Shown one piece after another: positions 35,510 through 54,945 of a stretch of 64,000 nucleotides of DNA. Source of the stretch: Gammaproteobacteria bacterium (lineage in GTDB: Bacteria; Pseudomonadota; Gammaproteobacteria; GCA-001735895); the NCBI GenBank assembly GCA_029862125.1, contig JAOTXY010000010.1, forward strand, positions 41-64,040. Reading direction: 5' to 3'. Position 1 is the stretch's first letter. Every line of letters begins with the position of its first letter. The notes under the pieces are model-generated. The model saw only the letters and a list, made by a program, of their open reading frames with translations. It was not told where the DNA came from and did no database searches. The position numbers were made by a program, and so were the translations under genes.

Positions 35510-35520
35510 ACGGCACACGT

Positions 35521-37492: not shown

Positions 37493-37585
37493 CCTGTCAT
37501 TGATAAGGTGACAGTTCACTTGATTCCGAGATAACTAAACGCTTAGCAGAATTTTTCGAATAGCGTGACATTACAGGAGAGGAAC

Positions 37586-37870: not shown

Positions 37871-37916
37871 ACCTGGCATCAAGGAATTTAAGAAACTAAG
37901 TCGACAGTCTAAGTTT

Positions 37917-39917: not shown

Positions 39918-40325
39918 ATGAATAAATGTTCGATAACGGCCGCAATCTTGGCGATCCATTTTTTTATCTGGGTATTACCTGCCGTAACTAACGAGAGCAT
40001 TGCCGGAGGTCACTACCGGATCGGCACGCTTAATGAATCCCACCATTATCGCGACGACGAAGACTTTAATAGCAGCCACAATGGTTTCTATATCGCGCAT
40101 AACAACAATTTGTTTGGCACCTACTACAACTCGGATTTTGCGCAGAGTTTCTTCTACGCGCGCAACCGCCGAATCAACGACATATTCAGTTTCTCGTATG
40201 GCGTCGCCACTGGATACAACGTAGGCATGATTCCAATGGTTGGATTATCCGCACAAATGAGTATCTTCAAACTAACATTGACGCAGGAAGCAGCTGTGAT
40301 TGGCCTTGAGTTTTCGTTGTTATGA
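39918..40325 (+). CDS. Hypothetical secreted/outer-membrane-like protein (135 aa), compositionally AT-richer than surroundings
   Basis: N-terminal hydrophobic segment. Tyr/Asn/Phe-rich with alternating beta-strand-like pattern and terminal F-x-L-L. No recognised domain. Abuts the dmgdh remnant. Confidence 0.35.
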   Translation: MNKCSITAAILAIHFFIWVLPAVTNESIAGGHYRIGTLNESHHYRDDEDFNSSHNGFYIAHNNNLFGTYYNSDFAQSFFYARNRRINDIFSFSYGVATGYNVGMIPMVGLSAQMSIFKLTLTQEAAVIGLEFSLL

Positions 40326-40556
40326 CGCCGCAGTTCGGGATCGTGGCAGCTTGTTTTCCGGGTCGTAGAGCGGCTTGTAACCGACTGACTCTACCTTCAT
40401 CAGAAATTGCTCGCCGAGATATTCCATGATCATCGCACGGCCTTCCTTGCAGTATTCGCGGGGCAGGTAGCCAAGCCCGATATTTTTATCGAGGCTTGGA
40501 CCGTAAGCGATACAAGTGATGTAAGAGCGGCACCCTTTCGCCTCGATCGGAAATCC
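40320..40556 (-). pseudogene. Remnant of the 3' end (last about 78 codons) of a dimethylglycine-dehydrogenase-like gene
   Basis: Gap-free nucleotide alignment, about 80% identical by eye, to 52381-52617, the 3' end of the intact 854-aa gene. The remnant encodes ...GFPIEAKGCRSYITCIAYGPSLDKNIGLGYLPREYCKEGRAMIMEYLGEQFLMKVESVGYKPLYDPENKLPRSRTAAS*, compared with ...IDSKGRRSYLSSIAYGPSIGKNIGLGYLPYEYCEEGRELVTEYLGEQFTMKVAAVGYKPLYDPENKLPRS* in the intact gene. Upstream of the homology are in-frame stops and no start. Confidence 0.8.
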
Positions 40557-40706
40557 CCATGTACTTGACCCTCATCAAGGTTGCCCGCTGATTTTGAAGA
40601 TTTAATAGTAGATTAATCTAACAGAAGATTAGTCGCTACAAGTTTGTCATCTGAAACAGACGAATTTAAACCAAATAACATCAGAAAATTTAAGAGGAGC
40701 ATCATC

Positions 40707-41024
40707 ATGAGCCGTTCACCTAGAATCGCAATAAGCGGGATTGTCGCCCTGTTAAGCGGGGGCCTCGGTCTCAGCCAGAGTTATGCCGCCGATGCGGTGC
40801 CGCGAGCCGAGTTACTGGCGTCCATGTGTATCACCTGTCACGGCGCTAATGGTAAAGGCGCCAAGCCTATGCCTGGGATTAACGGCGAGGAACCCGCCGA
40901 TTTTATCGACCTGATGCAGGCCTTCGCCAACGGTGAAGAGTCCACCAGTATCATGGATCGCCATGCCCAGGGTTATACCGAGGCCGAGCTCAAGCTGCTC
41001 GCCGAATATTTCAGCAAACAATAA
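40707..41024 (+). CDS. Monoheme c-type cytochrome, flavocytochrome c sulfide dehydrogenase cytochrome subunit-like
   Basis: ATG 40707 with AGGAG RBS. Signal peptide. Single CITCH heme motif. 105 aa. Stop 16 nt before the FccB gene. Confidence 0.7.
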   Translation: MSRSPRIAISGIVALLSGGLGLSQSYAADAVPRAELLASMCITCHGANGKGAKPMPGINGEEPADFIDLMQAFANGEESTSIMDRHAQGYTEAELKLLAEYFSKQ

Positions 41025-41039
41025 TAGAGGAGAAAGACA

Positions 41040-42323
41040 ATGAAAGCATATGATCGCAGAGACTTTCTCAAGGTAATCGGAGCCGCGGGCGCAGTAACCG
41101 GGTTGGGTAGCCTGGTGTGGCCAATGGAAGCCCTGGCCGCAGCCAGCGGAAAAGTGGTTGTCGTTGGTGGCGGTTTCGGTGGCGCGACCTGCGCCCGGTA
41201 TCTGAAACGCTGGGGACCCCAACTCGATGTCACCCTGGTTGAGCGCGATACCAGCTATATCACCTGCCCGTTTTCCAACGAGGTGCTCTCGGGTAATCTT
41301 GACATCAGCAAGATTACCCACGACTACGGCAATATCCACGCTCAGGGTATCAATGTGGTGCACGACGAGGTCACCGCTATCGATGCCGGTGGAAAATCGA
41401 TCAACCTCAAGTATGGCGGTTCGATGAAATTCGATAAATTGGTTGTATCACCGGGTATCGCGTTCAAGTGGGGTGCGATTGAAAATGACCAGGCGGCGGT
41501 GCAACGGGCAATGCCGCACTCATGGAAAGCCGGCGAACAGACGCTATTGCTGAGAAAACAGTTGCAGGCTATGCGCGACGGCGGCACCGTCATCATCGTG
41601 CCACCGAAGAAACCGTTTCGCTGTCCACCCGGACCTTATGAACGCGCCAGCCTGATTGCACATTATCTCAAGTGGAACAAGCCGAAGTCCAAAATCCTGA
41701 TTGTCGATGCCAACCCGACCCATTCCAAGCAGGCTGCGTTTCACGAAGCCTGGAACAAGGAATACGGTAACATGATCGAATGGATCAAGGATACCGACGG
41801 TGGCGTCATTACCAGAGCGGATCCGGGCAACATGACCCTGCGCAATGATTTTGGCGACGAATACAAGGGTGATGTAATCAACCTGATCCCCTATCAAAAA
41901 GCGGGCGAACTGGTTGAAACCGCCGGCCTGACCAACAAGGATGGCTGGTGTACCGTCGATATGGGCACTTTTGAATCGGCAAAGGCCAGGGATGTACATA
42001 TCATCGGTGACGCCTGCGTCGCCGGTGCCATGCCAAAATCTGGCCACTCGGCGGCTTCGCAGGCGAAGAATTGTGCTGCTGCGATCGTTTCCATGCTCGC
42101 CGGAGATACACCACCCGAACCGACCTATGCCAACACCTGTTACAGCCTGATCGGACCCAAGTACGGTATTTCGGTGGCCGCAGTTTACCGCCTTAAAGAC
42201 GGGGTCATCGTCAAGGTTTCCGGTGGAGTCAGTAAAGTAGGCAACAAGGATCGGGTACATGAGAACGAAGCCAAGTATGCCCGCGGCTGGTACAAGTCAA
42301 TCACCTCCGACGTGTTCGGTTGA
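41040..42323 (+). CDS. fccB: Flavocytochrome c sulfide dehydrogenase flavoprotein subunit
   Basis: Tat signal RRDFLKVIGAAGAVTGLGS. FAD motif VVVVGGGFGGATCARYL. FCSD-type motifs RCPPGPYERASLIAHYLK and CVAGAMPKSGHSAASQAKNCA. Length is 427 aa. Confidence 0.85.
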   Translation: MKAYDRRDFLKVIGAAGAVTGLGSLVWPMEALAAASGKVVVVGGGFGGATCARYLKRWGPQLDVTLVERDTSYITCPFSNEVLSGNLDISKITHDYGNIHAQGINVVHDEVTAIDAGGKSINLKYGGSMKFDKLVVSPGIAFKWGAIENDQAAVQRAMPHSWKAGEQTLLLRKQLQAMRDGGTVIIVPPKKPFRCPPGPYERASLIAHYLKWNKPKSKILIVDANPTHSKQAAFHEAWNKEYGNMIEWIKDTDGGVITRADPGNMTLRNDFGDEYKGDVINLIPYQKAGELVETAGLTNKDGWCTVDMGTFESAKARDVHIIGDACVAGAMPKSGHSAASQAKNCAAAIVSMLAGDTPPEPTYANTCYSLIGPKYGISVAAVYRLKDGVIVKVSGGVSKVGNKDRVHENEAKYARGWYKSITSDVFG

Positions 42324-42348
42324 GCCGATCGATATCTGGTAATGAGAT

Positions 42349-42378
42349 GGGTGGCGTTCGCGCCACCCCGTTTGATTA
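42349..42378 (+). terminator. Candidate intrinsic terminator after fccB
   Basis: gggtggcg-ttcg-cgccaccc hairpin followed by a U-rich tract (cgtttgatt). Confidence 0.4.
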
Positions 42379-42394
42379 GGAAGTTAATGGACCG

Positions 42395-42862
42395 ATGAGA
42401 AGACGAACTTTATTGCAAAACCTGTCTGCGGTTGCAGCTACCTGGGTGGCCGGCGGTAGCGGTATATTTTATTCAATGCTGGCGAACGCAGCGTCGAGAC
42501 CAGATGCGGCGTTTCTGGCCAAGGATGCCGACACGGCGATGATGGAGGTACTGGGTACCCGGGAAGCCACCGCCAGCGACCAAATCAAGCTCGATGCCCC
42601 GCTGCAGGCGGAAAACGGCGCGGTGGTTCCAATCGAGGTATCGACCACCCTGCCGTCTCCCGAATCTGTCGTCGTGGTGGTGCCTAATAACCCGACACCG
42701 TTGTTGAGCGTCATAGAGACCACGCCCCGTACCGGCAACTACTTCAGAATGCGTATCAAAATGGCGGGCACCGATAACGTCATGGTATATGTCAAATCAG
42801 AAGGCCAGTGGTACGTCACCTCGCAGGAAGTGCGAGTTGCGATCGGCGGCTGCGGTGGTTGA
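42395..42862 (+). CDS. soxY: Thiosulfate-oxidation carrier protein SoxY
   Basis: Tat signal MRRRTLLQNLSAVAATWVAGGS. 155 aa. Ends with the invariant SoxY C-terminal motif VAIGGCGG*. Confidence 0.9.
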   Translation: MRRRTLLQNLSAVAATWVAGGSGIFYSMLANAASRPDAAFLAKDADTAMMEVLGTREATASDQIKLDAPLQAENGAVVPIEVSTTLPSPESVVVVVPNNPTPLLSVIETTPRTGNYFRMRIKMAGTDNVMVYVKSEGQWYVTSQEVRVAIGGCGG

Positions 42863-42891
42863 TATATCGATTTTGCTGAGGAATTTGCACT

Positions 42892-43206
42892 ATGGCGAAA
42901 AGACGTACAAGGCTCAAAGCGGAAATAATGGGCAGTGGTATCCGCGCGACCTGTTTAATCAAACATCCGATGGAAACGGGCAATCGGCTCGATTCTGACG
43001 GCAACAAGATCCCGATTCACTACATCAAGTACGTGAAGTTTTCGGTCAACGGCGAGCATGTCGGCACGCTCAACCTCGGTCCCGGGGTGTCGGCAGATCC
43101 TTATCTATCGTTTGATATTGCCGACGTCAAGGTAGGTGATACGCTCGCCTTGCAGTGGGAAGACAACAAGAGCGAATCGGACACCGTGGAACGCGTCGTC
43201 AAGTAG
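42892..43206 (+). CDS. soxZ: Sulfur-compound chelating protein SoxZ
   Basis: 104 aa. Immediately downstream of soxY. Conserved IKHPMETG and PIHYI blocks of SoxZ. Confidence 0.85.
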   Translation: MAKRRTRLKAEIMGSGIRATCLIKHPMETGNRLDSDGNKIPIHYIKYVKFSVNGEHVGTLNLGPGVSADPYLSFDIADVKVGDTLALQWEDNKSESDTVERVVK

Positions 43207-43241
43207 GCGTTTCAGTGTTTACTGAAGGGGGGCATAGAGTT

Positions 43242-43967
43242 ATGCGTGAATCGGGACTTTTGGTTATGTTGCTGGCGGTTATTATCCACCCCGGAAACGG
43301 GTTAGCTCAGCAAGGCTCGGACACGGAGTTGCCGCCCAGCGTGTCGGCGGAACTCGCGCCTAATTATGAGTCCGGCCCACGTCTGATCCAGGATTTGTCC
43401 GATGAGGCGCAAAAAATTCGCCGCCAGCAATTGATGCGGCAATCGAATCGCGTCATGCCACCGGTACCGCGGGCGCAAAAAAAGGCGCTTTTTGACATGA
43501 TGACCCCCATGAGCAGTATGTCGATGCGCGATCTGTTCAATTTCATGACCGATAAAATCAAGGCCGATCCCGAATTGACATTCGACGACGTCGTCGAGGC
43601 GATGGAACTCAAGGCCAATGAAGTAAATTTCAAAAAAGTGGGGCATAACGAATTCTGGCGGGACGTCAGCGCTTTCTCCGGTTTGCCGACTCTGCGGCTC
43701 GAGATACTCCAGTTCTGCGACGCCTCGGTCGGCCGGCGCATGCTCGATTACAGTCCCGAATTTTCGATTTTCATTCCCTGCCGGATTACGGTCATGGAGG
43801 ACGCCACCGGCGAAATCTGGTTGATGACGCTGGACTGGGACGTCAGCTGGCTGGCGCGAGCCTGGCAGCCTGGATCCCGGCTGGATCCGGAGCTGGTCAA
43901 GGATGCAATCCGTATCCGCGATGCGATGACCGAAATCATGCAGGCCGGCGCCTCCGGAGACTGGTGA
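43242..43967 (+). CDS. Hypothetical periplasmic protein, possibly DUF302-like C-terminal domain
   Basis: ATG 43242 with purine-rich RBS. Signal peptide LLVMLLAVIIHPGNGLA. C-terminal block FSIFIPCRITVMEDATGEIWLMTLDWD resembles the DUF302 core. The assignment is tentative. Confidence 0.35.
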   Translation: MRESGLLVMLLAVIIHPGNGLAQQGSDTELPPSVSAELAPNYESGPRLIQDLSDEAQKIRRQQLMRQSNRVMPPVPRAQKKALFDMMTPMSSMSMRDLFNFMTDKIKADPELTFDDVVEAMELKANEVNFKKVGHNEFWRDVSAFSGLPTLRLEILQFCDASVGRRMLDYSPEFSIFIPCRITVMEDATGEIWLMTLDWDVSWLARAWQPGSRLDPELVKDAIRIRDAMTEIMQAGASGDW

Positions 43968-44030
43968 AGCGGGCATGATCGCAGCCTGAGTTACGGCCTC
44001 GAGGTAATGCCATTATAATTTTTAAATTAT

Positions 44031-44819
44031 TTGAAAGGTGACAGCTTGCAGACACTGGCTTTTCATCGCTCGCTAGCATATTGCGTGAGTGTCCTGTTAC
44101 TCGCCACATTGGTTTTTGCGGCCCGTGCCGAAATCCATTCGACCCTTGAAATCAACGACGAAATCGAAATTGATATTGTCACATTCGGCGAACCGGCGAA
44201 GACCGGCATTATCTGGTTTGCCTGCAGACAGGGGGAGGATGCGATCGAGTTTGAAACCGCAAGAAAGCTGGTAAGCAGGGGGTATCAGATTTATTTCCCC
44301 GATATGTTGAGTGCGCATTTCCTGTCGTCCCTGCCGTCGAATATCGCGCGGATTCCGGCTGCCGAGGTTGTCACTGTGATCAGGCATATCATCGATACCT
44401 CGACTGCCGAGCGATTGTTTCTGCTGGCCGGCGCACGCGCCGCGGTACCGATAATCCGCGGCCTGGCCGATAAAAATTTGCAACAGATGGACTCGAAATT
44501 GAAAGGTGCATTATTGATCACTCCCCGAATTTACAAAACAATGCCCGATCCCGGCTCCGAACCGGTTTATATCGATGAAACTGGATTGTCAATCCACCCA
44601 ATCCTGGTACTGGAAGGCGAACGTACCCCTAACCGTTGGGGATTGCCGCATTTGGTAGCAGCGCTAACAAAATCAGGCAGCCGGGTGCAAACCGATTTGA
44701 TTGACGGAGTGCGCGGCTACTTTTATTTACGCGACAACCAGACCCCGGCCGAGATGGAATTAACCCGCCAACTCGATTCATTGATTCATGATAATTTGCA
44801 GAAACTCGGAGCAATTTGA
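44031..44819 (+). CDS. Hypothetical secreted protein (262 aa)
   Basis: Signal peptide SLAYCVSVLLLATLVFAARA. No recognised domain. 4-nt overlap with the downstream TlpA gene suggests co-translation within the sulfur cluster. Confidence 0.4.
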   Translation: MKGDSLQTLAFHRSLAYCVSVLLLATLVFAARAEIHSTLEINDEIEIDIVTFGEPAKTGIIWFACRQGEDAIEFETARKLVSRGYQIYFPDMLSAHFLSSLPSNIARIPAAEVVTVIRHIIDTSTAERLFLLAGARAAVPIIRGLADKNLQQMDSKLKGALLITPRIYKTMPDPGSEPVYIDETGLSIHPILVLEGERTPNRWGLPHLVAALTKSGSRVQTDLIDGVRGYFYLRDNQTPAEMELTRQLDSLIHDNLQKLGAI

Positions 44820-45337
44820 GAATGGGTTTTTACCGGCACCTGATATTTTGTCTGTCGCTGGCTTTACTGGGTCAGCAGGCGCAGGCTGTCGCGGGTCAGT
44901 TAAAAGAATATTGGGGTGATATGACGTCACCCGAGATTGAATTACCCGATTTGCAGGGGCGGCAACATTCGCTGGCCGACTATCACGGCAACGTCGTGCT
45001 GGTACAGTTCTGGGCTACCTATTGCACGCCCTGTCGTACCGAAATGCCGACCATGAATCGGCTGATTAAAAAGATGCGAGGTAAGCCGTTCAAAATCGTC
45101 ACCGTCAACATGGCCGAATCACCCGGGCAGGTGCGGCAGTTTTTACAGGAAGTGCCGGTCGACTTTCCGGTGCTAATGGATAGCGATGGCAGCACCCTGA
45201 GTCGATGGAAGGTTTTTGCCGCTCCAGCAAATTTTATTCTCGACAAGCAGGGTAAAATCACCTTTACGCTGTACGGTGCAATTGAATGGGATTCGGATGA
45301 AATGGTCAGTCGGTTAAACGCGCTGAGCGAAGAATAA
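44816..45337 (+). CDS. TlpA/ResA-family periplasmic thiol-disulfide oxidoreductase (SoxW-like thioredoxin)
   Basis: Signal peptide. Thioredoxin CxxC active site WATYCTPCRTEMP. Length is 173 aa. Confidence 0.8.
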   Translation: MRMGFYRHLIFCLSLALLGQQAQAVAGQLKEYWGDMTSPEIELPDLQGRQHSLADYHGNVVLVQFWATYCTPCRTEMPTMNRLIKKMRGKPFKIVTVNMAESPGQVRQFLQEVPVDFPVLMDSDGSTLSRWKVFAAPANFILDKQGKITFTLYGAIEWDSDEMVSRLNALSEE

Positions 45338-45352
45338 GTTCATCCGGCAGAC

Positions 45353-45970
45353 TCAGTTAACCGAGGCATAGAAATTCAGCAGCGCCTCGATGTCCTCCTG
45401 ATTCAGCTTCTTCAGCCGGTTTGACATGCGCCGTGACACGAGGCGTTTGCCGCTGAGAATATTTTTGAACTGCAGCCTCAGGTATGGCGTCCATTGCCCG
45501 GCGAGGATGTTCTTGTCATCTGTGGGTTCGGTACCGTTTTTCAGGTGACATCGTTCGCAATGCTTCTCGTGTAGAATTGCGCCGCGACTGGCAAGTTCCG
45601 GATTAAACGCCTGACTTCTTGGGATATACTTCCGCTTGGAAAAATAATTCGCCAGCCCCTTGAGATCCGCGTCGCTCAATTGCTTCGCAATGTTGATCAT
45701 AACGGTTTCGGGCTCGTTGGGCTGCTGAAATTCAATTGCGATACGCCTGTTTTCCCGATACTCGTCCATGGTGTAGAGAAATCCCGCGTAGGAAAAACCG
45801 GAGATGCTCGGGAAAATAGGTAATACGCTGTTACCATCCTGTCCATGACAGATCTCGCAACGTATTACCAGGTCGTCAGTATCTTCGGCAGGCCCGGGAG
45901 CGGTAAATAGCGCAAGGCCTACCGTTAACAGGTAAGCGGGAACACGGTGCATGAGCCGGATCACAATCAT
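45353..45970 (-). CDS. Diheme c-type cytochrome
   Basis: Signal peptide. Two heme motifs, CEICH and CERCH. Length is 205 aa. Confidence 0.7.
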   Translation of the reverse strand: MIVIRLMHRVPAYLLTVGLALFTAPGPAEDTDDLVIRCEICHGQDGNSVLPIFPSISGFSYAGFLYTMDEYRENRRIAIEFQQPNEPETVMINIAKQLSDADLKGLANYFSKRKYIPRSQAFNPELASRGAILHEKHCERCHLKNGTEPTDDKNILAGQWTPYLRLQFKNILSGKRLVSRRMSNRLKKLNQEDIEALLNFYASVN

Positions 45971-46151
45971 CTGTTACCACACTTGGCATGTTTAAGCCCG
46001 ATATTAATCAAAACTTGCCGAAATGGATTGATATATCTCAATCCGTGTCTTTTTTACTTTGGAGCTGGTTCCGAAAACCAGGAATGAAACTTGCGCCTAT
46101 CAGGCGATCGCGAATGTTGCTGCCCCTAGGCCGAGGCGAACAGGTGATACT

Positions 46152-46691
46152 TTATTGTGCGGGCATCGGCAGCGGCATCTGGGTGCCAGGCACCATGCCC
46201 CATGGCCAGCTGTGCATGCCCGGTAGCGGATCACCCGGATTTAGGCCGTACTTCTCTTCGACCGCGCGCTGCCAATATTCGGCGGCTTTCGGGTCCGATA
46301 TCGACGCCATCATGTCGTTGTAGGCTTCAGGATTAGCCATCGTCATCGGATTCATCATCGCCGAGACGTAGGGGCCGAAGAATTGCTGATAGCGGCCCAC
46401 GTCTTCGTTGTCATGACAGGCCGCGCAGCTGCTGATCGGATTGGCCCAGATGCGCGGATCCATCGACATCGTCATCATCATGGCCCAGCTGTTGGGATCC
46501 ATTGTTTTTGCTATGGTTTTAGCGGCCCGGTTAACTTCGCTGGAACCAGACGCTGCCTGTTGGTCCTGCGCCTGCAACGGATTGCTGGCCAATACCGTCA
46601 CCAACAATACTAAAAATAAAATACCGGCTAAACCCTTACTCTGCGTCGCATGAAACCATTGGTTAAGCTTGATCATAGCGAAATCCATCAC
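46152..46691 (-). CDS. Met-rich monoheme c-type cytochrome-like secreted protein sharing the MNP-x-x-Y motif with the downstream repeat protein
   Basis: Signal peptide. Single CAACH motif. Met-rich segments AMMMTMSMDPRIWANP and AMMNPMTMANPEAYNDMM. C-terminal MHSWPWGMVPGTQMPLPMP. Overlaps the cytochrome c5 gene by 4 nt. Confidence 0.55.
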   Translation of the reverse strand: MMDFAMIKLNQWFHATQSKGLAGILFLVLLVTVLASNPLQAQDQQAASGSSEVNRAAKTIAKTMDPNSWAMMMTMSMDPRIWANPISSCAACHDNEDVGRYQQFFGPYVSAMMNPMTMANPEAYNDMMASISDPKAAEYWQRAVEEKYGLNPGDPLPGMHSWPWGMVPGTQMPLPMPAQ

Positions 46692-47044
46692 TGTGAATTG
46701 TGGATGATGTAGTCGACCGCGGCCCTAACCTGATCGTCGGTGAGGTTCCAGTTGCCGCCGCGCGCCGGCATGCGTTTGCCGGAACTGCCGGTCCAGCCAT
46801 TAATTGCGTGCCGATACAAAACTGTCCTGCCGCTATCGATACGCGCCTTCCAGGCATTTTTATCACCGATTCGCGGCGCGCCACCAACGCCCGGCCAGTG
46901 GCAAACCGTACAGGTACGATTAAATACGCCCCAGCCTTCTTTCAAACGTTCGGTCGAGGGTTGCTCCTCGGCAAACGCAGGCCCTGTTAACGACGCCAGG
47001 CCAACGCCGAGTCCAAGAATCATTGCTTGTAAATGATGGTTCAT
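46688..47044 (-). CDS. Cytochrome c5 family monoheme cytochrome
   Basis: Signal peptide. CTVCHWPGVGGAPRIGD followed by a conserved R..GGNW.LTDD.V..AV.YI region. Length is 118 aa. Confidence 0.8.
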   Translation of the reverse strand: MNHHLQAMILGLGVGLASLTGPAFAEEQPSTERLKEGWGVFNRTCTVCHWPGVGGAPRIGDKNAWKARIDSGRTVLYRHAINGWTGSSGKRMPARGGNWNLTDDQVRAAVDYIIHNSQ

Positions 47045-47104
47045 GCGTCTTCTCGCTGCCTTATCTCCGTCGTTGCAATGGCCCGCCTCGATATACCAGT
47101 TTGA

Positions 47105-47830: not shown

Positions 47831-48158
47831 GGGAACCTCCAGCTAAGCCTCAATTGACGTAATCGATAACGCCACTACGGTTATTCCAATAATTTAAACC
47901 GTATTGGTTGCCAGATATATACCCCACAAGATATATGGTCTTCTATCGAAGGAGTTTTGATCGAATATCGCGCGCATAATTGCTGGTGGAACGCCGGTAG
48001 GTCGAAAATCAAGTTCGGTCAATAGCCACAATTTGTGCGATTTTTTTGATCTGCGTCAACTAGGAAGGGATAAGTATCCGTTTAATAAAATTGAAATTGG
48101 CGTGGATGTAATTACGTCAATCAATCAAAACAATTAATCTCAATCTTGGGGAGCTTTA

Positions 48159-48866
48159 ATGGATATCAAACAAATTGCAAGTTGGCTTCTTGCTTTGACA
48201 TTTATAGCCTGTTCACAGCTTAGCTATGCTGATGAAGTCTCGGCGATTGCACGCGGCGGAAAATTATACGATAAATGGTACGCGGTTATCGGTGCCGCCA
48301 AGCCTGATGGCACCCATCCGGCCTGGCCTGCATCCAATACCAAAAAGAAGGGCGCCACGACCCATCGCTGCAAATCCTGTCACGGTTGGGATTTAATGGG
48401 TAAGGACGGCGCCTATGCATCGGGTTCGTATAAAACCGGCATCGGTGGACTCACGCAACTGCAGGGTGCCGCAAACGCCAAAGTGATTGCGGCGTTGGAA
48501 GACTCGACTCACGGCTATGCCGGCAAGTTGAGTCAGCAGGATCTCACCGATCTGGCCAATTTCCTGACCAAGGGGCAATTCGATATCGACGCGGTAATCG
48601 ACCGTAAATCGAGAAAGGCCAAAAATGGTGACCGCTCCAAGGGTGAGTCTATTTACAAGACTGTCTGCGCTAACTGCCATGCAGAATCCGGCACGGAACC
48701 GGAGGGAATGCCCCCGCTCGGCGCACTTTCAAACAAAAACCCCTGGGAGACGATCCAGAAGATCATGAATGGCCAGCCCGATTCCGAGATGCCGGCGATA
48801 CGTGCTTTTGGCCTTCAGGTTGCGGTCGACATTCTGTCTTACGTGCAAACCCTGCCGAAGGAGTAG
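48159..48866 (+). CDS. Diheme c-type cytochrome
   Basis: Signal peptide. Heme motifs CKSCHGWD and CANCHAES. Length is 235 aa. Confidence 0.7.
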   Translation: MDIKQIASWLLALTFIACSQLSYADEVSAIARGGKLYDKWYAVIGAAKPDGTHPAWPASNTKKKGATTHRCKSCHGWDLMGKDGAYASGSYKTGIGGLTQLQGAANAKVIAALEDSTHGYAGKLSQQDLTDLANFLTKGQFDIDAVIDRKSRKAKNGDRSKGESIYKTVCANCHAESGTEPEGMPPLGALSNKNPWETIQKIMNGQPDSEMPAIRAFGLQVAVDILSYVQTLPKE

Positions 48867-48915
48867 CGGTCAATCTCTGCTTAAGGCGTAACCCCTTTTT
48901 CGCCGACCTGCAACA

Positions 48916-49833
48916 TTAGTCGGCGAGGCGGGTGGTCATCGGGTTGGTTTCGTATTGCGTCCACTGGTGCAGCGAACCATCGTACAATTTGACGTCCTGT
49001 TTGCCGAGTATTTCGCGCAATACGAACCAGGCCGATGAGGCTTCATAGCCGCTGTTGCAGTACAGGATCAGGCTATCGCCAGTATTGATGCGCAGCGAAT
49101 CGAGCAGGCTCAGGTAAGATTCACGGTCGAAGTAGCGATTGCCACCCTTCATCGGATTCAGAAATTTATATGGCATATTACGTGAGCCTGGAATATGCCC
49201 GTTGGCGTAAACGTAATCCTTCTTTTCGAGACCGACATGATAGCGTAGCTCACGCGTATCGATCAGCGTCACCGCATCATCCTGCATCGCTGCCCGAACC
49301 TGCTCCATGGTTGCCACCATATCCGGCTTTTCATCGCCAACCACGTAATTACCGGGCGTTACCGTGTCCACCTCGGTAACCAGGTCTTCGAGCGAGGCGA
49401 CCCAGCTCGGATTGCCGCCATCGAGTAATGTTACCCGGTCGAAGCCAAAATATTTCATGTGCCAATACAGCCGCGCGGCGCCGGTGACCTGCCCGGAGGT
49501 TTTGCCGCGATGCGTCAAAACCACGATGCTGTCACTATTAATCCCGTGCGCACGCATGAATTTTTCGAAGCTGGCGGGATCCGGTCGCATTCGCGTGATG
49601 TTCTTGTCATTGATGTCGCGCTCGATCCGTATCTCTTTCACATCGACCAGTATCGCGCCCGGAATATGTCCGTCAGTGAAACTCTTGATATTTTTGCGCA
49701 CGTCGAGGACCACAACCTCGTCGATATTGTTGGCCAGCCATTCGCCTTTGACCAGCGGCCCGGGGAATTCCACCGCGGCCAATTGTGACCCGTAAAAAAG
49801 TCCAAGCATTACCATCAGTAATAATTTCTTCAT
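48916..49833 (-). CDS. Periplasmic tandem-rhodanese thiosulfate/3-mercaptopyruvate sulfurtransferase
   Basis: Signal peptide. Two rhodanese domains. Catalytic loop LILYCNSGYEASS with active-site Cys. Confidence 0.8.
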   Translation of the reverse strand: MKKLLLMVMLGLFYGSQLAAVEFPGPLVKGEWLANNIDEVVVLDVRKNIKSFTDGHIPGAILVDVKEIRIERDINDKNITRMRPDPASFEKFMRAHGINSDSIVVLTHRGKTSGQVTGAARLYWHMKYFGFDRVTLLDGGNPSWVASLEDLVTEVDTVTPGNYVVGDEKPDMVATMEQVRAAMQDDAVTLIDTRELRYHVGLEKKDYVYANGHIPGSRNMPYKFLNPMKGGNRYFDRESYLSLLDSLRINTGDSLILYCNSGYEASSAWFVLREILGKQDVKLYDGSLHQWTQYETNPMTTRLAD

Positions 49834-49941
49834 AACAACACCTCATACCATTAATCTAATGATGCTGAGTCTGAATGCCGCGATCATGACCTTAGTCAAC
49901 TAAAACCATCAGGATCAGGCACGGTCTAACTTCAGGCTGGC

Positions 49942-51312
49942 TTAACTGTAAAACATGTCGCGGTACATGCCCTCGGCCCAGGCCAGGCTGGCCTGGCCAC
50001 CCTGTGTATCCCAGCGCTCGATTAAATGCGTACGGTCGAACGCGAACTCGCCGGTTTTGTCGCTGAACTTGTAGTAGGTAATGATGCTCATCGCGCGCAG
50101 CGGATCTATGTCGACCGCGGAAAAACACATGGTTTGCGGGCTGCGCCAGCGCACCTCCTTGTCGAGTGCGTGCGCGGCGACCACCTCGGCGACATACTGC
50201 GCTTCCGAGTGTGCGGTATGGCCGCCCTTGGAAAAGGGTTGCGAACGCGAATCGCCGGTCACGTAAACGCGTTCGTCGTCGAGCAGGTGATAACGAAACG
50301 GGTCGGTATTGGCCGCCTTTTGCGGGCTGATCGGACTGGCGATGCCGTTATCCTCGATCAGGCGCGACGCGCGCACCGGCGGGTAAATAATCGCGTCGTC
50401 GAAATCGTACTCGTCAAACTCGGTTTCGACGCGGCGGCCTTCAATGTCGATGTTGGTGATCTCGGAACTCGACAGGTACTCGATGTAATCGCCGTAGAGC
50501 TCGGCAAAGGCGCGCGCGAAACCGGCCTTCTTGATGCGAATTTCGGCATTCATGTCGAGCAGCAGAATTTTTGCGCGCACGCGCTGGCGCTTGAACAGAG
50601 CCGCCACCATGCAGGCGCGCTCATAGGGCGCTGCCGTACAGCGAAAATCGCCGTTAGGCACGTTGAGCAGGAAGGTGCCGCCGCTGAAGCGATGAATCTT
50701 GCGTTTAATTGTCAACAGTTCCGAGCTCGAGACGAAACCGCCGGGATATCGGTGAAACAGCAGGTTTTGCGCCTCGGTATCCTCGATCCCGATGCGCCCG
50801 TAGTCGTATTCGATGCCGGGCGCGAGCACCAGATAATCGTAGTCGACGAAACCTTTTTCGGTGTAGACGCGGCGGGTCTCGCGATCGAAACCGAGCACGG
50901 TCGCCTGCATGAAGTGATAATCGTGGTTATTCGCAGCATCGAAAAAACTGTGACTCAGAAAATCGAGATCGACCTGGTCGGCGAGCCATGAATTGCTAAT
51001 TGGAAAGGACACGAATGCCGACTGTCGATCGATCAATATTACGTCAAAGCCGGGATTGAAAAGGCGCAGGTACTTTGCCATCGTCAGCCCCGACCAGCCG
51101 CCACCGACGATCACGACGCGTGCCCCCCGGGGCCTTGGCAAGGTGGCCTTGCGCAACAGGCTGTTGAGCGCGGGCGCCTGGCACATTTCGTTATTATCCG
51201 CGCCCGTAGCGACGTTGGCGCTAACCGTAGTCGCCGCGAGCGCGACGCCGGAAGCCTGCAGAAATCTGCGTCGCTCGAGATCGGTGTTTTCTTTCATCTT
51301 TGGAGCCTTCAT
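49942..51312 (-). CDS. FccB/SoxF-family flavoprotein sulfide dehydrogenase (second copy), Tat signal
   Basis: Tat signal RRRFLQASGVALAATTVSA. FAD motif VVIVGGGWSGLTMAKYL. FCSD-like RCTAAPYERACMVAALFK, parallel to FccB RCPPGPYERASLIAHYLK. Length is 456 aa. Confidence 0.75.
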   Translation of the reverse strand: MKAPKMKENTDLERRRFLQASGVALAATTVSANVATGADNNEMCQAPALNSLLRKATLPRPRGARVVIVGGGWSGLTMAKYLRLFNPGFDVILIDRQSAFVSFPISNSWLADQVDLDFLSHSFFDAANNHDYHFMQATVLGFDRETRRVYTEKGFVDYDYLVLAPGIEYDYGRIGIEDTEAQNLLFHRYPGGFVSSSELLTIKRKIHRFSGGTFLLNVPNGDFRCTAAPYERACMVAALFKRQRVRAKILLLDMNAEIRIKKAGFARAFAELYGDYIEYLSSSEITNIDIEGRRVETEFDEYDFDDAIIYPPVRASRLIEDNGIASPISPQKAANTDPFRYHLLDDERVYVTGDSRSQPFSKGGHTAHSEAQYVAEVVAAHALDKEVRWRSPQTMCFSAVDIDPLRAMSIITYYKFSDKTGEFAFDRTHLIERWDTQGGQASLAWAEGMYRDMFYS

Positions 51313-52010
51313 TTGAAATCGGGATTACGCCAGGCCGTATCAGGCGCGAGATCGGATGCTGGCACCGGCAGATGCGATACGTAGTTCAACACCTGGTCGA
51401 AATCCTGTTCCGACAGCGTCGTGAACAGGTTGGCCATCACCGGTGCGACCCGGCGCAGGCGGTCGCGCGCCAGGCGCGCCTGGCGTTTCATGTAGGTATA
51501 GTGCTGTCCTTGCAGGCGCGGATAGGACAGCTCGTTTTTGCCTTCGCCGTACTGCCCGTGGCAGCTAATGCAGTATTGCCGGTAGAGTCTTTTACCGGAT
51601 TCGTATTCTTCGCTGTCGACGGGCCATGGTCCGCGGTTGTGCATAGGGTTCATCGGCAATGTCGAAATGTAGGCAACCACGTCGCTCAGATTCTGGTAAC
51701 CGCCGATGGTGCGTTCCTGCACGAACGGCTGCATCGTTGGGTTGGCGCGCTGCCCGCTGCGTATATCGAGTAATTGTTTCATCAGCACGTTGACATGCTG
51801 CCCGGCGATCTGCGGATAGGTACCGTCGTCGTTGCCCCAGGCCTCGGGCAGGTGGCAGCGCGCGCAGATTTCGAAACTGCGACGACCGTTGTCGAGGTCG
51901 GGTGTGAATTCGAGCACCACGCGAATCGGCTCGACGGCAGCCAGTTTCGACGAAAATACCAAAACCAGTATGCAAAGGCTGTAGCAAAGCGTTATATGTA
52001 TCCTGTTCAT
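51309..52010 (-). CDS. Diheme c-type cytochrome, flavocytochrome c cytochrome subunit-like (FccA/SoxE-like)
   Basis: Signal peptide. CARCH and CISCH motifs. Lies directly upstream of, and overlaps by 4 nt, the FccB/SoxF-like gene. Confidence 0.7.
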   Translation of the reverse strand: MNRIHITLCYSLCILVLVFSSKLAAVEPIRVVLEFTPDLDNGRRSFEICARCHLPEAWGNDDGTYPQIAGQHVNVLMKQLLDIRSGQRANPTMQPFVQERTIGGYQNLSDVVAYISTLPMNPMHNRGPWPVDSEEYESGKRLYRQYCISCHGQYGEGKNELSYPRLQGQHYTYMKRQARLARDRLRRVAPVMANLFTTLSEQDFDQVLNYVSHLPVPASDLAPDTAWRNPDFK

Positions 52011-52380
52011 CAGCGGTGGCCGGATTTCCCCAGTTTAAGCGAATACTCACGATAAATTTTAGGGAAGTTGCTTATGCATCGATTGATCAGCGTCAGGGAT
52101 TGGGCGATTGGTCGACATACGCCTTAAGCCGTAATTAGCCCGCAATTCGGATCGAATCCTTTATTTCATATATCCAGGTGCGAATCCGGAAAGGTGGCGG
52201 TGGCCATCGTCAATTTCGACAGGAACCATCAGCACAATCCCGAGGCACACGAAGAAAGCGAGGTCTTGGAGGGATCCAACCAGGCATTACTATAGAATAC
52301 GGCAGATCTGGCATTGCGCGACAGAGAAAAAGATGTCGAAGCAAATGATGCTCACCCCGCCATCGTTGCATTCATGTCTG

Positions 52381-54945
52381 TCAGGATCGCGGCAGCTTGT
52401 TTTCCGGGTCGTAAAGTGGCTTATAGCCGACCGCGGCAACCTTCATCGTAAATTGCTCGCCCAGGTATTCGGTGACCAGCTCACGGCCTTCCTCGCAATA
52501 TTCGTAGGGCAGGTAGCCCAAACCGATATTCTTGCCGATGCTAGGACCGTAGGCGATACTGCTGAGATACGAGCGACGGCCTTTTGAGTCGATCGGCACC
52601 TCGCCCGTTTCGGAATCCATCAGTGGGCACTGACCGACCGGGTAACGCGCGATGCCATTCGAGTCAACGTTGTCGTCCATCACTAACGTACACAGGTAGG
52701 CGGCCTGGTGTTCGAGCTCGCGTTGCTCGAGATAGGGCGCCTTGCCGTGGAAGTCCGCTGCCTTGACTACGGGGCGCGCCAGGCCGGCCTCGTACAGGTT
52801 GTACTCGGTCAGCAGGTCGGCGTTTTGCAGGCGCAGGCTCTTTTCCATGCGTCGGGTGTTGGCATAGGTTTCGACACCGACCGGGGTCGCGCCCTGGGCG
52901 TAGACCAGGTCCCATAGGGACAGGCCGTAGCTAAACGCCACGTGCAGTTCCCAACCCTGTTCGCCCACGTACGAAATGCGAAAGGCCTCGACCGGGATGC
53001 CCTTCAACGTAAGTTGCCGGGTTGCGGCGAACGGGAAGTTTTCATCCTCCCAGGCGGCAGGGTCGTCAGCGATTGCCTGAATCGTCTGGCGCGCATTCGG
53101 GCCCCAGACACCCAGGCAGGCCATGTGATCCGAGCGATCATCGATGTAAACGTTCCAGCCCTTGTCTTCGGCCATGCGCTTGAGCCAGATGTAGTCGCGG
53201 TGTCCCGCGTCAGCGCCGTCGATTACCCGGAAGCGGTCCTTAGCATGGCGGATCACCGTTAAGTCCGCGCGCACGCCGCCGCGTTTGTCGAGGAAGTGCG
53301 TGTAAACACCTTTGCCGATAGGCGTGTCGCCACCGACCTTGGCGACGCAGGTGAATTCCATCAGGGCCTCGGCGTCGGGCCCGATGACGTCATAGACGGC
53401 GAAATGCGACAGGTTGATCATGCCGACGTTCTCCGACATCGCGAGTTGTTCGGCATTGGATACACGCCAGAAGTGACGGTTGTCCCACTCGTGTTCACGT
53501 ACCGGTACTCGATCGCCGTATTTCTCCAGCAGCGGTTCGTTGGCGGCGTAACCGTGAGCGCGCTCCCATCCCGACAGTTCCATGAAATAACCACCCAGTT
53601 CCTGTTCGCGTGCCCAGAACGGACTGCGGCGCAGGTTGCGCCCCTTGGTATAGGGCTCGCGATTATGAACCGCGGGGTTGTAAATCTTGAACGCGGATTC
53701 GAAGCAACGATCGTAAATATAGGAAGGCGTTTTCTGAATCGGGTAGTGGCGCGCGGTGTCGATACCGAAGAAGTCCATCTCTGCGACGCCGTCGGTCATC
53801 CAGTCCACCAGCACCTTGGCGATGCCGGGGGCGTCCTTGACCCAGACCGCGATCGCGTACCAGAGGCCGCGGGTTTGTGAGGATTCGCCGATCGACGGTC
53901 CGCCGTCGGTGGTCACCTGCAGCAGACCGTTAAACGAGTGTTTCTCGTTGTAACCGATTTCGCCGAGAATCGGTGTCAGTTCCATGGCGCGCTCCAGCGG
54001 CTCCATGATCTGTTCGAGTTCGAGATCGCGCTGTGACGGTGACCAGTGGGTCTCGCCTTTTTCGGGAAGGTCACGCGGGTGTACCAGTCGAGGCTCCTTT
54101 TCTTCGTAGTAGCCCCACTCGATCTGGCCACCTTCCGGCGTTTTCGGATCGCCGGTATCGCGCATGTAGGCGGAGTTGCCCTGGTCGCGCAGCAGCGGGA
54201 AACCGATGTCCTTGCCGGTGGCTTCGAATTCAGTGTACGGTGCGAAGAAGGAGAGCGGGTGATCGACTGGCATGACCGGCAGATCCTCACCGGCCATCTC
54301 CGCGATGGTACGCCCCCACAGTCCCGTACACACGATGACGTGGTTGGCGGCAATGTAGCCGCGGCTGGTTTCCACACCGACAATGCGTCCCTCCTGGATG
54401 TCGAGGCCGGTCGCCGTGGTGTTGGCAAAGGATTGCGCCTTGCCGGTCTTGACCGCGTTATCGACCAGTATGCCGGCAACGGTTTGCGAGCGGGGTTTCA
54501 CCAGGCCCGCGTCGGGATCCCACATCGCGCCCTGGATCATGTCTTCTTCGAGCAGCGGGAACAGTTCCTTGGCCTCGGCCGCGCTGATCATTTTCACGTT
54601 GGTGCCGAAAGCCTTGCCGGAAGCAACCTTGCGCTTGAGCTCCATCATGCGGTCGTCATCGCCTTTACGCGCTACCTCGAGGCCACCGATACGCGAGTAA
54701 TGACCCATCTGGTCGAAGAACTCGATGCTGTAGTGCGTGGTGTAGCAGGTAAACTTGCTGTGATCGGTGGCATAGCAGAAATCGGAGGCGTGCGAAGTCG
54801 AGCCGCAATCGGTCGGAACCGAGGTCATGTCGATGCCGACGATATCTTCCCAGCCGCGTTCGACCAGGTGATGCATCACCGAGGCGCCGACAATGCCGCC
54901 GAGGCCGATGATGACGACGTTGGATTTATCTGGAAACTGGGCCAT
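52381..54945 (-). CDS. Dimethylglycine/sarcosine dehydrogenase family protein (FAD DAO domain + GcvT aminomethyltransferase domain)
   Basis: Start MAQFPDKSNVVIIGLGGIVGAS with AGGAGAA RBS. 854 aa. N-terminal FAD oxidase domain and C-terminal folate-binding GcvT domain (…SYVGEQGWELHV…). The ORF track start at 55062 adds 39 non-homologous residues. Confidence 0.8.
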   Translation of the reverse strand: MAQFPDKSNVVIIGLGGIVGASVMHHLVERGWEDIVGIDMTSVPTDCGSTSHASDFCYATDHSKFTCYTTHYSIEFFDQMGHYSRIGGLEVARKGDDDRMMELKRKVASGKAFGTNVKMISAAEAKELFPLLEEDMIQGAMWDPDAGLVKPRSQTVAGILVDNAVKTGKAQSFANTTATGLDIQEGRIVGVETSRGYIAANHVIVCTGLWGRTIAEMAGEDLPVMPVDHPLSFFAPYTEFEATGKDIGFPLLRDQGNSAYMRDTGDPKTPEGGQIEWGYYEEKEPRLVHPRDLPEKGETHWSPSQRDLELEQIMEPLERAMELTPILGEIGYNEKHSFNGLLQVTTDGGPSIGESSQTRGLWYAIAVWVKDAPGIAKVLVDWMTDGVAEMDFFGIDTARHYPIQKTPSYIYDRCFESAFKIYNPAVHNREPYTKGRNLRRSPFWAREQELGGYFMELSGWERAHGYAANEPLLEKYGDRVPVREHEWDNRHFWRVSNAEQLAMSENVGMINLSHFAVYDVIGPDAEALMEFTCVAKVGGDTPIGKGVYTHFLDKRGGVRADLTVIRHAKDRFRVIDGADAGHRDYIWLKRMAEDKGWNVYIDDRSDHMACLGVWGPNARQTIQAIADDPAAWEDENFPFAATRQLTLKGIPVEAFRISYVGEQGWELHVAFSYGLSLWDLVYAQGATPVGVETYANTRRMEKSLRLQNADLLTEYNLYEAGLARPVVKAADFHGKAPYLEQRELEHQAAYLCTLVMDDNVDSNGIARYPVGQCPLMDSETGEVPIDSKGRRSYLSSIAYGPSIGKNIGLGYLPYEYCEEGRELVTEYLGEQFTMKVAAVGYKPLYDPENKLPRS

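Follow-up and report, generated by a model that had tools for sequence, protein, structure and literature searches.

A sulfur-oxidation gene island between dmgdh and a remnant of the dmgdh 3' end in a marine-sediment gammaproteobacterium

A 64 kb stretch of gammaproteobacterial DNA, here called the window, holds a block of sulfide and sulfur oxidation genes with an intact dmgdh-family gene on one side and a second copy of the end of that gene on the other. How did this arrangement originate? Did the block enter a duplicate of dmgdh, or the only copy? And how could it be mobile if no mobility gene accompanies it?

The dmgdh repeat and the genes it encloses

A repeat finder detected a single 216-nt direct repeat (40335-40550 against 52381-52596, 79% identity, spacing 12,046 nt), the sole long repeat pair within the window. 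Two copies of the dmgdh 3' end on the minus strand had been proposed in a sequence-only reading of this DNA, and both the repeat finder and a MAFFT alignment agree. That reading placed the remnant at 40320-40556 and equated it with the last 78 codons at about 80% identity. The identity stands (78.7% at the DNA and 75% at the protein level over 72 aligned codons), but the homology is limited to these 72 codons, at 40335-40553; the longer estimate arose because the remnant stop has mutated from TGA to CGA at 40335-40337, which lets the frame run on to a TAA at 40320-40322. The remnant frame has zero internal stop codons, and stop codons lie directly upstream of 40556. Similarity between the copies begins at about 40553-40556, a sharp non-homologous junction, and extends precisely to the intact gene's stop codon. 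Upstream of the remnant no further dmgdh homology was detectable (z < 2.5 against shuffles in 11 of 12 comparisons).

The intact gene is as first described. Its domain order (DAO, FAO_M, GCV_T, GCV_T_C) and length of about 850 aa match the dimethylglycine/sarcosine dehydrogenase family, and nearly all of its 120 closest database homologs likewise have 854 aa. The flanks carry quaternary-amine catabolism genes, also as first described: carnitine- and betaine-type genes, a GbdR-like regulator and etfBA on the left, and the sarcosine oxidase genes soxBDAG on the right. Of the two candidate substrates of the dmgdh product, dimethylglycine and sarcosine, the neighbouring soxBDAG and etfBA genes fit dimethylglycine.

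Between the intact gene and the remnant lies an 11.8 kb sulfide/sulfur oxidation gene block (Table 1). Pfam, NCBIfam and motif checks bear out the earlier list of sulfur and cytochrome genes only. FccAB is recognized by the FCSD central and flavin-binding domains, a TAT signal and an adjacent CxxCH cytochrome c, and SoxYZ by the C-terminal GGCGG of soxY and its pairing with soxZ. Pfam and NCBIfam gave no match to soxAX, soxB or soxCD among the called island ORFs (70-111-aa frames nested in longer ORFs aside), and the searched ORFs do not appear to encode a complete Sox thiosulfate-oxidising system. Family membership alone predicts a role in sulfide oxidation for FccAB and for the second FccB-like enzyme and its cytochrome partner, a role as sulfane sulfur carriers for SoxYZ and the rhodanese, and electron delivery to the respiratory chain for the c-type cytochromes. 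Expression is probably under an FNR/CRP-type regulator; the box near the junction is kept in island versions at other loci, and the window is enriched in this pattern, with 10 matches where 2.1 would be expected.

Table 1. Features of the dmgdh locus, by position in the window
Feature	Position	Strand	Remarks
MltF-like lytic transglycosylase	37917-39500	-	left flank anchor; absent from 'SBP5-adjacent' relatives
Variable flank gene, 135 aa	39918-40325	+	signal peptide, GC 0.45; in window, L008, L106; absent from L006, L007, L091, L094
dmgdh 3'-end remnant, pseudogene fragment	40335-40553	-	left direct repeat; 72 codons and former stop codon (TGA to CGA)
Island left end and fccA upstream region	40554-40706	+	junction alignment; holds FNR/CRP-type box
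FNR/CRP-type box	40565-40578		TTGACCCTCATCAA; about 10 nt from junction
fccA, monohaem cytochrome c subunit	40707-41024	+	ATG at 40707; 105 aa in gene calls of related contigs; Pfam Cytochrom_C, one CxxCH
fccB, flavocytochrome c sulfide dehydrogenase flavoprotein	41040-42323	+	Pfam FCSD_central 3e-48, FCSD-flav_bind 3e-27, TAT_signal
soxY, sulfur carrier	42395-42862	+	Pfam SoxY 3e-29; C-terminal GGCGG
soxZ, sulfur carrier	42892-43206	+	Pfam SoxZ 6e-27
DUF302 protein	43155-43967	+	Pfam
262-aa protein	44031-44819	+	no NCBIfam match
TlpA-like thiol-disulfide oxidoreductase (redoxin)	44816-45337	+	CTPC motif; Pfam
Dihaem cytochrome c, 205 aa	45353-45970	-	weak PdsA-like match
Met-rich monohaem c-type cytochrome, 179 aa	46152-46691	-	CxxCH motif
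Monohaem cytochrome c, 118 aa	46688-47044	-	CxxCH motif
Secreted Met-rich protein	47105-47830	-	9-aa MNPxxYM repeats
Dihaem cytochrome c, 235 aa	48159-48866	+	Pfam; CxxCH at residues 71, 170
Two-domain rhodanese	48916-49833	-	Pfam
Second FccB/SoxF-like flavoprotein	49942-51312	-	Pfam
Dihaem cytochrome c paired with second FccB/SoxF-like flavoprotein	51309-52010	-	CxxCH motifs
Sequence 3' of intact dmgdh stop	52011-52380	-	terminator-like hairpin 52359-52337; common only to island-bearing genomes
Intact dmgdh-family gene, 854 aa	52381-54945	-	last 72 codons and stop (52381-52599) are the right direct repeat

The unoccupied site and the probably displaced gene end

What is found at this site where the island is missing? 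The unoccupied site is present in five related genomes (L094, L091, L007, L093 and L106; L numbers denote relatives of the window). L094 has the order metY, CBS, dmgdh(1-854), SBP5, with exactly one full dmgdh, 95% identical in amino acids to the window gene, between CBS of the right flank and SBP5 of the left. The order is dmgdh[212-854], MltF, o101, SBP5 in L091 and dmgdh, MltF, o101, SBP5 in L007, both island-free. A long dmgdh is followed in L106 by a homolog of the 39918-40325 ORF, and in L093 dmgdh abuts the left flank, similar to other island-free loci. The contigs of L091, L007, L093 and L106 end within dmgdh, and a second copy beyond the contig is possible there; two full copies were seen at none of about 40 related loci. 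The synteny comparison that had been proposed as a check thus reveals an indel polymorphism, the island being present or absent at the same locus among close relatives. Since the island-free relatives have a single dmgdh, the remnant would be the displaced end of that gene, or of a copy of it.

The surroundings of the remnant point the same way. The sequence after its stop is homologous to that after the full-gene stop in island-free genomes: that of L008 matches the post-gene sequence of L106 from nucleotide 2 (83%), and that of L006 is homologous to the post-stop sequence of L007 and L091. These alignments indicate that the remnant retains the native downstream context and that the intact gene has a new downstream sequence. 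The same fragment is found at the same junction in L006, where it has an in-frame stop, and in L008. In the window its stop is lost and invariant residues are changed, and in one lineage group, that of L170, L173 and L179, it is almost erased. To judge by its sequence, the remnant is a pseudogene.

The left junction is identical, by alignment, in the window, L006 and L008, and the same island-end motif is present in L170 and L173-L177. The junction is common to at least five diverged island-bearing lineages and therefore argues for one insertion event. Between five lineages the island alleles have diverged by 9-14% in DNA sequence, and the three well-kept remnants form a clade in all 300 bootstraps. 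Other observations weigh against the insertion reading. Along the intact gene, the divergence profile has no clean step at codon 782; conservation is lower over the last 430 nt in every pair, and after normalisation only a hint of a breakpoint is left, some 320 nt from the dmgdh stop. Which of the two repeats is the native copy cannot be strictly proven, as a crossover anywhere in the repeat would produce the same map.

These observations are best accounted for, with a probability of about 0.7, by one old homology-anchored insertion that supplied a replacement gene end, followed by later recombination among lineages. The 11.8 kb periplasmic block would have entered the only dmgdh of an uncultured marine-sediment gammaproteobacterial lineage at about codon 782. 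The incoming DNA would have brought a complete 3' end (72 codons with their stop, followed by a terminator-like hairpin and other new downstream sequence), so that dmgdh stayed intact. The native 3' end, displaced and left in its native downstream context, would have become a pseudogene fragment. As for the route, we infer recombination anchored in dmgdh homology as the likeliest, with no island-encoded recombinase. Two paths are conceivable. In homology-facilitated illegitimate recombination, one end would pair with dmgdh and the other join illegitimately at codon 782; alternatively, a circular fragment carrying a dmgdh 3' end may have integrated by a single Campbell-type homologous crossover.

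Later exchange and alternative origins

Flank and island do not share the same degree of similarity. Window and L008 are 97-98% identical in DNA in the flank and 89% in the island, with a step near 39,500; L090 and L115 are 78-80% identical in the flank and 89% in dmgdh and the island. The SBP5 flank tree interleaves island-bearing and island-free genomes, and three downstream flank types each occur both with and without the island. The departure of island presence from the flank phylogeny, together with the identity jumps at the edges, suggests that homologous recombination later added, removed or exchanged the island. Related lineages would have acquired, lost or swapped it by recombination of the ordinary homologous kind, with dmgdh as homology arm on one side and the remnant or the downstream flank on the other.

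The remnant itself is a mosaic. Seven of nine remnant-specific bases lie in the first 66 nt, at the junction end (p = 0.005), and over the distal 108 nt the remnant shares 94-96% identity with the functional genes of L091, L007 and L090. Remnant divergence among the window, L006 and L008 is 0.06-0.12, three to five times below the synonymous divergence of adjacent fccB and below or near that of other island genes (0.13-0.45). This low value needs an extra assumption, either refreshment by recombination or some constraint. A further point against the insertion reading is that the intact 3' end of island-bearing L090 is 94% identical to those of island-free L091 and L007, so that the island-bearing genomes are not a single clade in their intact gene ends.

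In which direction did the later events run? The polymorphism possibly, if doubtfully, arose mainly by loss: the island-bearing form would be ancestral for this clade, with later precise deletion between the two dmgdh repeats or replacement by an imported island-free allele. The 216-nt direct repeats allow the island to be cut out precisely and an intact chimeric gene to be left behind, as with e14 (see below). Among functional genes, those of island-free L091 and L007 have the 3' ends most closely related to the remnants; they differ from the remnant consensus at 23-25 of 216 nt, mostly at the proximal end, and the interleaved flank tree is in line with losses. However, the distal part offers no diagnostic remnant-specific bases to prove a chimera. 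More distant relatives with dmgdh in other contexts (L095-L118) have no adjacent island, which still requires a basal insertion; loss bears on the direction of later events, not on the origin of the structure.

A tentative extension of the insertion scheme is that the island constitutes a recombinase-free, self-portable cassette, with both homology arms, the full dmgdh and its 216-nt end, derived from one conserved gene. If so, any relative with a dmgdh could take up the island through a double crossover confined to that gene, irrespective of the genes next to it, and at every transfer the remnant would be made anew from the functional gene end of the recipient. Such a cassette would account for the same junction with three downstream flank types, each also island-free, and also the clustering of old substitutions beside the junction and a distal remnant that looks far younger than the island.

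Did an integrase once drive the insertion? An element of the e14/icd type with a substitute gene end and an att site at codon 782 might later have lost its integrase and transfer genes. The layout is that of e14 in icd, with an intact target, the element and a displaced C-terminal pseudogene as direct repeat (PMC13626634); copy similarity runs up to the stop codon and no further, and its 5' limit is sharp as well. Yet Pfam and NCBIfam profile searches of the called island ORFs (again except for 70-111-aa frames nested in longer ORFs) found no recombinase or transposase, in agreement with the sequence-only reading, which saw none. Recombinase, phage or conjugation genes, or recognisable fragments of them, are likewise missing from more than eight island-bearing contigs of diverged lineages and from island versions at other loci (L171, L178). 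ARAGORN found no tRNA gene in the 64 kb window, and Rfam gave no match. Composition is native: the comparison of island and flanks that had been suggested gave no atypical signal (GC3 0.652 in the island and 0.653 in the rest of the window, p = 0.93), and the island is therefore old or from close relatives. Among the classical marks of genomic islands, atypical composition and tRNA/tmRNA adjacency are lacking and presence/absence polymorphism is found. An integrase-driven origin is thus unlikely.

Even less probable are two side-by-side dmgdh paralogs, of which one was mostly replaced by the island or decayed to 72 codons. The sequence-only reading had the island insert into, or replace most of, a paralogous dmgdh; the insertion holds relative to close relatives, but the second paralog is not supported. 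The remnant shares only 79% identity with the intact copy of its own genome and never groups with it (0 of 300 bootstraps), as an old paralog might. It nests, however, among the 3' ends of single dmgdh genes, with those of the MltF-adjacent L091 and L007 genes and of island-bearing L090; the remnant-versus-intact phylogeny proposed earlier speaks against an old paralog. With the single full gene of L094 between CBS and SBP5, one dmgdh at the left flank in each of L091, L007, L093 and L106 (contigs ending inside the gene) and no two-full-copy genome among the related loci, a destroyed or decayed paralog is disfavoured.

All related sequences are metagenome assemblies, and both island ends are seen in only two lineages (the window and L115/L170); a donor genome with the island beside dmgdh and no remnant was not found. 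A chimeric contig joined at repeated dmgdh sequence, for which one might cite contigs that end inside the gene (L007, L091), is refuted by the recurrence of the left junction in independent assemblies and samples (L001-L003, L006, L008) and of the right junction in L085, L090 and L115, and by L170 and L173-L176, which span both sides with a decayed remnant, diverged sequences having the same order.

Known systems and significance

Of the known systems, the closest in layout is the cryptic prophage e14 in icd of E. coli K-12, with its icdC pseudogene (Hill et al. 1989, as described in PMC13626634). In both, the target gene stays intact by way of an inserted substitute 3' end, the displaced native C-terminal fragment lies at the far end as a direct repeat, and recombination between the copies can restore a single chimeric gene. 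The e14 element has its own integrase and excisionase, and SOS induction leads to its excision, according to the same source; in contrast, no recombinase or phage gene was found with the island in any lineage, and its cargo is a metabolic gene block. The dmgdh repeats are 79% identical, and those of e14/icd nearly identical.

Homology-facilitated illegitimate recombination with displaced 3' ends has been proposed for Rhs, CdiA and T6SS effector loci (PMC5361080, which cites de Vries and Wackernagel 2002 and Prudhomme et al. 2002). There too, the invading DNA pairs with a conserved gene at one end and is joined without homology at the other, no integrase is needed, and the old 3' portion is pushed downstream and kept as an orphan. 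However, the new end at those loci encodes a different toxin and immunity pair, which changes function, whereas the new dmgdh end leaves the function as it was, and 15 unrelated genes after the stop codon make up the payload.

The island also resembles flexible genomic islands in its fixed locus, variable presence, native composition, absence of mobility genes and mismatch of island and flank similarity. Such islands are exchanged by homologous recombination in flanking core genes; here, both arms can come from one gene (the full dmgdh and the 216-nt remnant). In content it is similar to the FccAB-SoxYZ clusters of sulfur-oxidising Gammaproteobacteria (FccB domains and TAT signal, cytochrome partner, SoxY GGCGG, SoxZ, rhodanese and TlpA-like redoxin). 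It differs in having no soxAX, soxB or soxCD among the searched ORFs, in its Met-rich repeat protein and extra cytochromes, and in a host region otherwise devoted to heterotrophic betaine and carnitine catabolism. The island is an ordinary but unusually well-documented accessory gene island without mobility genes.

What does the locus signify? It offers a natural example of a periplasmic sulfide/sulfur oxidation trait that is present or absent among very close uncultured marine-sediment heterotrophs, at one fixed site within a betaine/carnitine catabolism region and without mobile-element machinery. A gene can survive an insertion when the incoming DNA carries a spare gene end, and the leftover fragment can later act as a recombination handle. 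For annotation, such remnants flag island borders that are missed by integrase- and tRNA-based island finders. For ecology, the finding suggests strain-level variation of lithoheterotrophy in this group.

The duplicated end of the dmgdh gene

The sole long direct repeat in the window consists of two 216-nt copies, 79% identical and spaced 12,046 nt apart, and the two dmgdh 3' ends described in the sequence-only reading are real. Similarity stops precisely with the intact gene's stop codon. The left copy, or remnant, is an open frame of 72 codons on the minus strand (FPIEAKGCRSY...KLPRS), with stop codons directly upstream. Compared with the closing 72 codons of the 854-codon gene, its protein identity is 75% and its DNA identity 78.7%. 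Its stop has changed from TGA to CGA, and the frame runs on to a TAA, which explains the longer extent first assigned to it. An apparent resemblance to dmgdh in amino acids, extending ~20 codons further upstream of the remnant, was lost in local alignment against shuffled sequence. Between the copies, dN/dS is 0.20 and codon-position counts are 13/7/26, values that over 72 codons fit 'diverged while functional' or 'half neutral' alike. The domains of the intact gene (DAO, FAO_M, GCV_T, GCV_T_C) are arranged as in the dimethylglycine/sarcosine dehydrogenase family, and almost all of the 120 database relatives closest to it are 854 aa long as well. An assembly artefact was rejected as the source of the arrangement.

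Coordinates of features in and around the island (window positions)
Feature	Position	Strand	Remark
MltF-like gene and 101-aa ORF	37565-39500		Absent from L093, L094, L170, L173-L179
135-aa low-GC ORF with 77-aa ORF	39688-40325	+	Only in the window, L008 and L106
Small variable ORF (the 135-aa ORF)	39918-40325		Left flank
TAA ending the extended remnant frame	40320-40322	-
Left repeat copy (remnant)	40335-40550	-
Left junction, start of similarity	~40553-40556
FNR/CRP-type box TTGACCCTCATCAA	40565-40578		~130 nt upstream of fccA, 10 nt from junction
FNR/CRP-type box	46028-46041		Island promoter region
Secreted Met-rich protein	47105-47830	-	241 aa
27-nt (9-aa) MNPxxYM repeats	47282-47551		Within the Met-rich protein gene
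FNR/CRP-type box	48046-48059		Island promoter region
FNR/CRP-type box	48156-48169		Island promoter region
Segment after the dmgdh stop	~52177-52296	-	Post-stop 88-207; ~120 nt missing from L090 and L115; approximate, from BLAST offsets
Right repeat copy	52381-52596	-	End of intact gene
Intact dmgdh	52381-54945	-	854 codons

Sulfur and cytochrome genes lie between the copies, as had been claimed. They are fccA and fccB; soxY (with the GGCGG end) and soxZ; genes for a DUF302 protein, a 262-aa protein without assigned identity and a TlpA-like redoxin; a dihaem cytochrome, a Met-rich monohaem protein, a monohaem cytochrome and the secreted repeat protein; a second dihaem cytochrome and a two-domain rhodanese; and a second FccB/SoxF-like flavoprotein with its own dihaem cytochrome. 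soxAX, soxB and soxCD were not found among the called island ORFs searched. Judged by protein family alone, FccAB and the second flavoprotein-cytochrome pair would oxidize sulfide in the periplasm, SoxYZ and the rhodanese would handle sulfane sulfur, and the island cytochromes would deliver electrons to respiration. The left flank carries the small variable ORF, an MltF-like transglycosylase, a family-5 solute-binding protein, etfBA, a GbdR-like regulator and carnitine-type catabolic genes; the right flank carries a CBS protein, a Cys/Met PLP enzyme, an EamA transporter and the sarcosine oxidase genes soxBDAG. The island thus divides a coherent quaternary-amine catabolism region.

FNR/CRP-type boxes (TTGAT-N4-ATCAA, one mismatch) match the window 10 times against 2.1 expected, four of them in island promoter regions. 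The box before fccA has no mismatch in L170 and L173, nor in the island versions that lie at other loci (L171, L178). The secreted Met-rich protein has no family match; it is 174 aa long in L085, a 99.97% identical contig, and 146-268 aa elsewhere. The 179-aa monohaem protein beside it has similar Met-rich motifs.

Relatives with and without the island

Metagenome contigs were scanned with the dmgdh end of L007, and the mapped matches revealed the empty site. L094, which has no island, carries metY, CBS, a complete dmgdh (95% amino acid identity to the window gene) and the solute-binding protein, with etfAB further on. L091 has dmgdh (212-854), MltF, the 101-aa ORF and the solute-binding protein, an order that L007 shares as far as its contig reaches; in L093 dmgdh is followed by the solute-binding protein, and in L106 dmgdh (653-854) by a homolog of the small variable ORF. 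The locus therefore has the indel polymorphism that the sequence-only reading had named as a test, and the island is an insertion, as that reading proposed. The paralogous target gene that it also proposed is removed, as a single dmgdh stands between both flanks in island-free relatives; on this point the reading was wrong.

More distant dmgdh homologs lie in other neighbourhoods with no adjoining island, and the contexts of the closest full-length homologs (P0001, P0002) are unrelated and shed no light on this locus. A protein search with a 133-aa L007 fragment returned only short contig-end fragments; database 'proteins' with the repeatedly found lengths of 99, 155 and 186 aa that match the dmgdh C-terminus (P0121-P0240) were rejected as real short genes, being gene-caller starts at conserved internal Met codons on contig-end fragments. 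In L094, the ~5.3 kb (5733-11012) that separate the solute-binding gene from etfA have no window counterpart and are another variable spot. One in-frame stop interrupts dmgdh in L109, and L111 (1-663) starts with an inverted copy of codons 653-694 fused to codons 668-854, probably a foldback of the assembly.

Island-bearing relatives were found by exact-protein look-ups and then by scanning species-representative genomes for the MltF-like protein, with window proteins mapped on the matches. The look-ups showed this left junction in three further samples (L001-L003), and the right half of the island is present in L085. The scan added two more island-bearing species, L006 and L008, which are seen on the left half; L090 is seen on the right. 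The order in L008 is MltF, small ORFs, remnant and fccA onward; L006 is arranged likewise without the small ORF, and in the window, L006 and L008 the junction is identical base for base. In L170 (the L115 contig), L173-L177 and L179 the solute-binding gene adjoins the island, whose end motif is unchanged. On the right side, L090 and L115 run from soxA through CBS to dmgdh, a dihaem cytochrome and fccB2 onward. Island copies differ by 9-14% in DNA, which indicates at least five diverged island-bearing lineages.

The remnant keeps its native downstream context, since the sequence after its stop is homologous to that after the full gene in island-free genomes (L008 is 83% identical to L106 from nucleotide 2 on; L006 matches L007 and L091), and the sequence 3' of the intact gene's stop is common to island-bearing genomes only. 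A tree built from the final 216 nt has the three well-kept remnants as a monophyletic group (300/300 bootstraps) nested with L091, L007 and L090; they join the window's own intact end in 0/300. The remnant is a pseudogene: that of the window has lost its stop and altered invariant residues, that of L006 has an in-frame stop, and in L170, L173-L175 and L179 just the last ~60 nt are still recognisable. Divergence among the remnants of the window, L006 and L008 is 0.06-0.12, 3-5 times below the synonymous divergence of adjacent fccB and below or near that of other island genes (0.13-0.45). Seven of the nine remnant-specific bases fall within the first 66 nt (p = 0.005), and over the distal 108 nt, identity to the functional genes of L091, L007 and L090 is 94-96%.

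Source of the block and probable exchange around it

The search for a foreign composition or codon usage was negative, GC3 being 0.652 in the island and 0.653 in the remainder of the window. FccB homologs fall into a graded series, and shorter versions of the block (88-89% identity) occur at unrelated loci without dmgdh (L171, L178, L172). The L171 block has fccAB, soxYZ, DUF302, cytochromes, the repeat protein and rhodanese; that of L178 is the same minus soxYZ. The native GC3, the graded FccB series and the versions at other loci indicate a family trait moved between loci, not a distant import. The 262-aa protein, TlpA, dihaem cytochrome and fccB2 plus cytochrome modules are add-ons of the window version. 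Neighbours of the L171, L178 and L172 blocks are an isocitrate/isopropylmalate dehydrogenase-family (Iso_dh) gene, lutABC and a multihaem cytochrome, and FccB in these lineages is 82-89% identical.

DNA identity between the window and L008 is 97-98% at 28,000-39,500 and drops sharply at ~39,500 to ~89% (39,500-49,500); in these otherwise conspecific-level genomes the island region has a different history. L090 and L115 are 78-80% identical in the right flank and 89% in dmgdh and the island. Island-bearing and island-free genomes are interleaved in the solute-binding gene tree, and island-bearing as well as island-free examples exist of each of three downstream flank types (small ORF, MltF-adjacent, solute-binding-adjacent). 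The stretch downstream of dmgdh is also variable in itself: in L093, L094, L170 and L173-L179 the solute-binding gene directly adjoins dmgdh or the remnant. Repeated homologous recombination in and around the island, partly crossing over inside the remnant, fits these patterns, which are compatible with an ancestral state as well as with deletion for any particular island-free genome.

Mode of insertion

In the map of the cryptic prophage e14 in Escherichia coli icd, an intact gene is followed by the insert and by the displaced C-terminal pseudogene as a direct repeat (PMC13626634). The window has the same order. Unlike e14, the island lacks a match to the defining recombinase: among called island ORFs (70-111-aa frames nested in longer ORFs left out), no recombinase, transposase, phage or conjugation protein was matched, in agreement with the sequence-only reading. 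The window has no tRNA gene or Rfam match. Scans of the junctions (Rfam, promoter, terminator) gave no RNA family and no sigma-70 match, their sole feature being a terminator-like hairpin after intact dmgdh. An e14-type event predicts a step in divergence at the insertion point, codon 782. Profiles of the intact gene against 25 homologs (216-nt and 108-nt bins) have no step there; conservation is lower over the last 430 nt in all pairs, and the normalised profile gives a weak hint of a breakpoint ~320 nt from the stop of the window gene.

Homology-facilitated illegitimate recombination was put forward for 3' ends displaced in T6SS and Rhs loci (PMC5361080). Here it could have acted with no integrase; alternatively, a circular fragment carrying a dmgdh end could have entered by a Campbell-type homologous crossover. 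Either route would leave one sharp non-homologous junction, as at the left end, and a gene end that replaces the old one. The most likely history is insertion without a recombinase and, after it, homologous exchange, the whole account having a probability of about 0.7; for the specific recombinase-free route the odds are roughly even. Next comes an integrase element whose integrase has since been lost, which has the e14-like map in its favour and is unlikely given the ORF searches. Last, origin of the remnant from a decayed dmgdh paralog is very improbable with one dmgdh in the island-free relatives.

The structure is a recombinase-free member of a class, already known, in which the insertion keeps the target gene whole through a new 3' end. 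The locus matters chiefly as an example with good documentation and as a marker by which islands that carry no mobility genes can be found.
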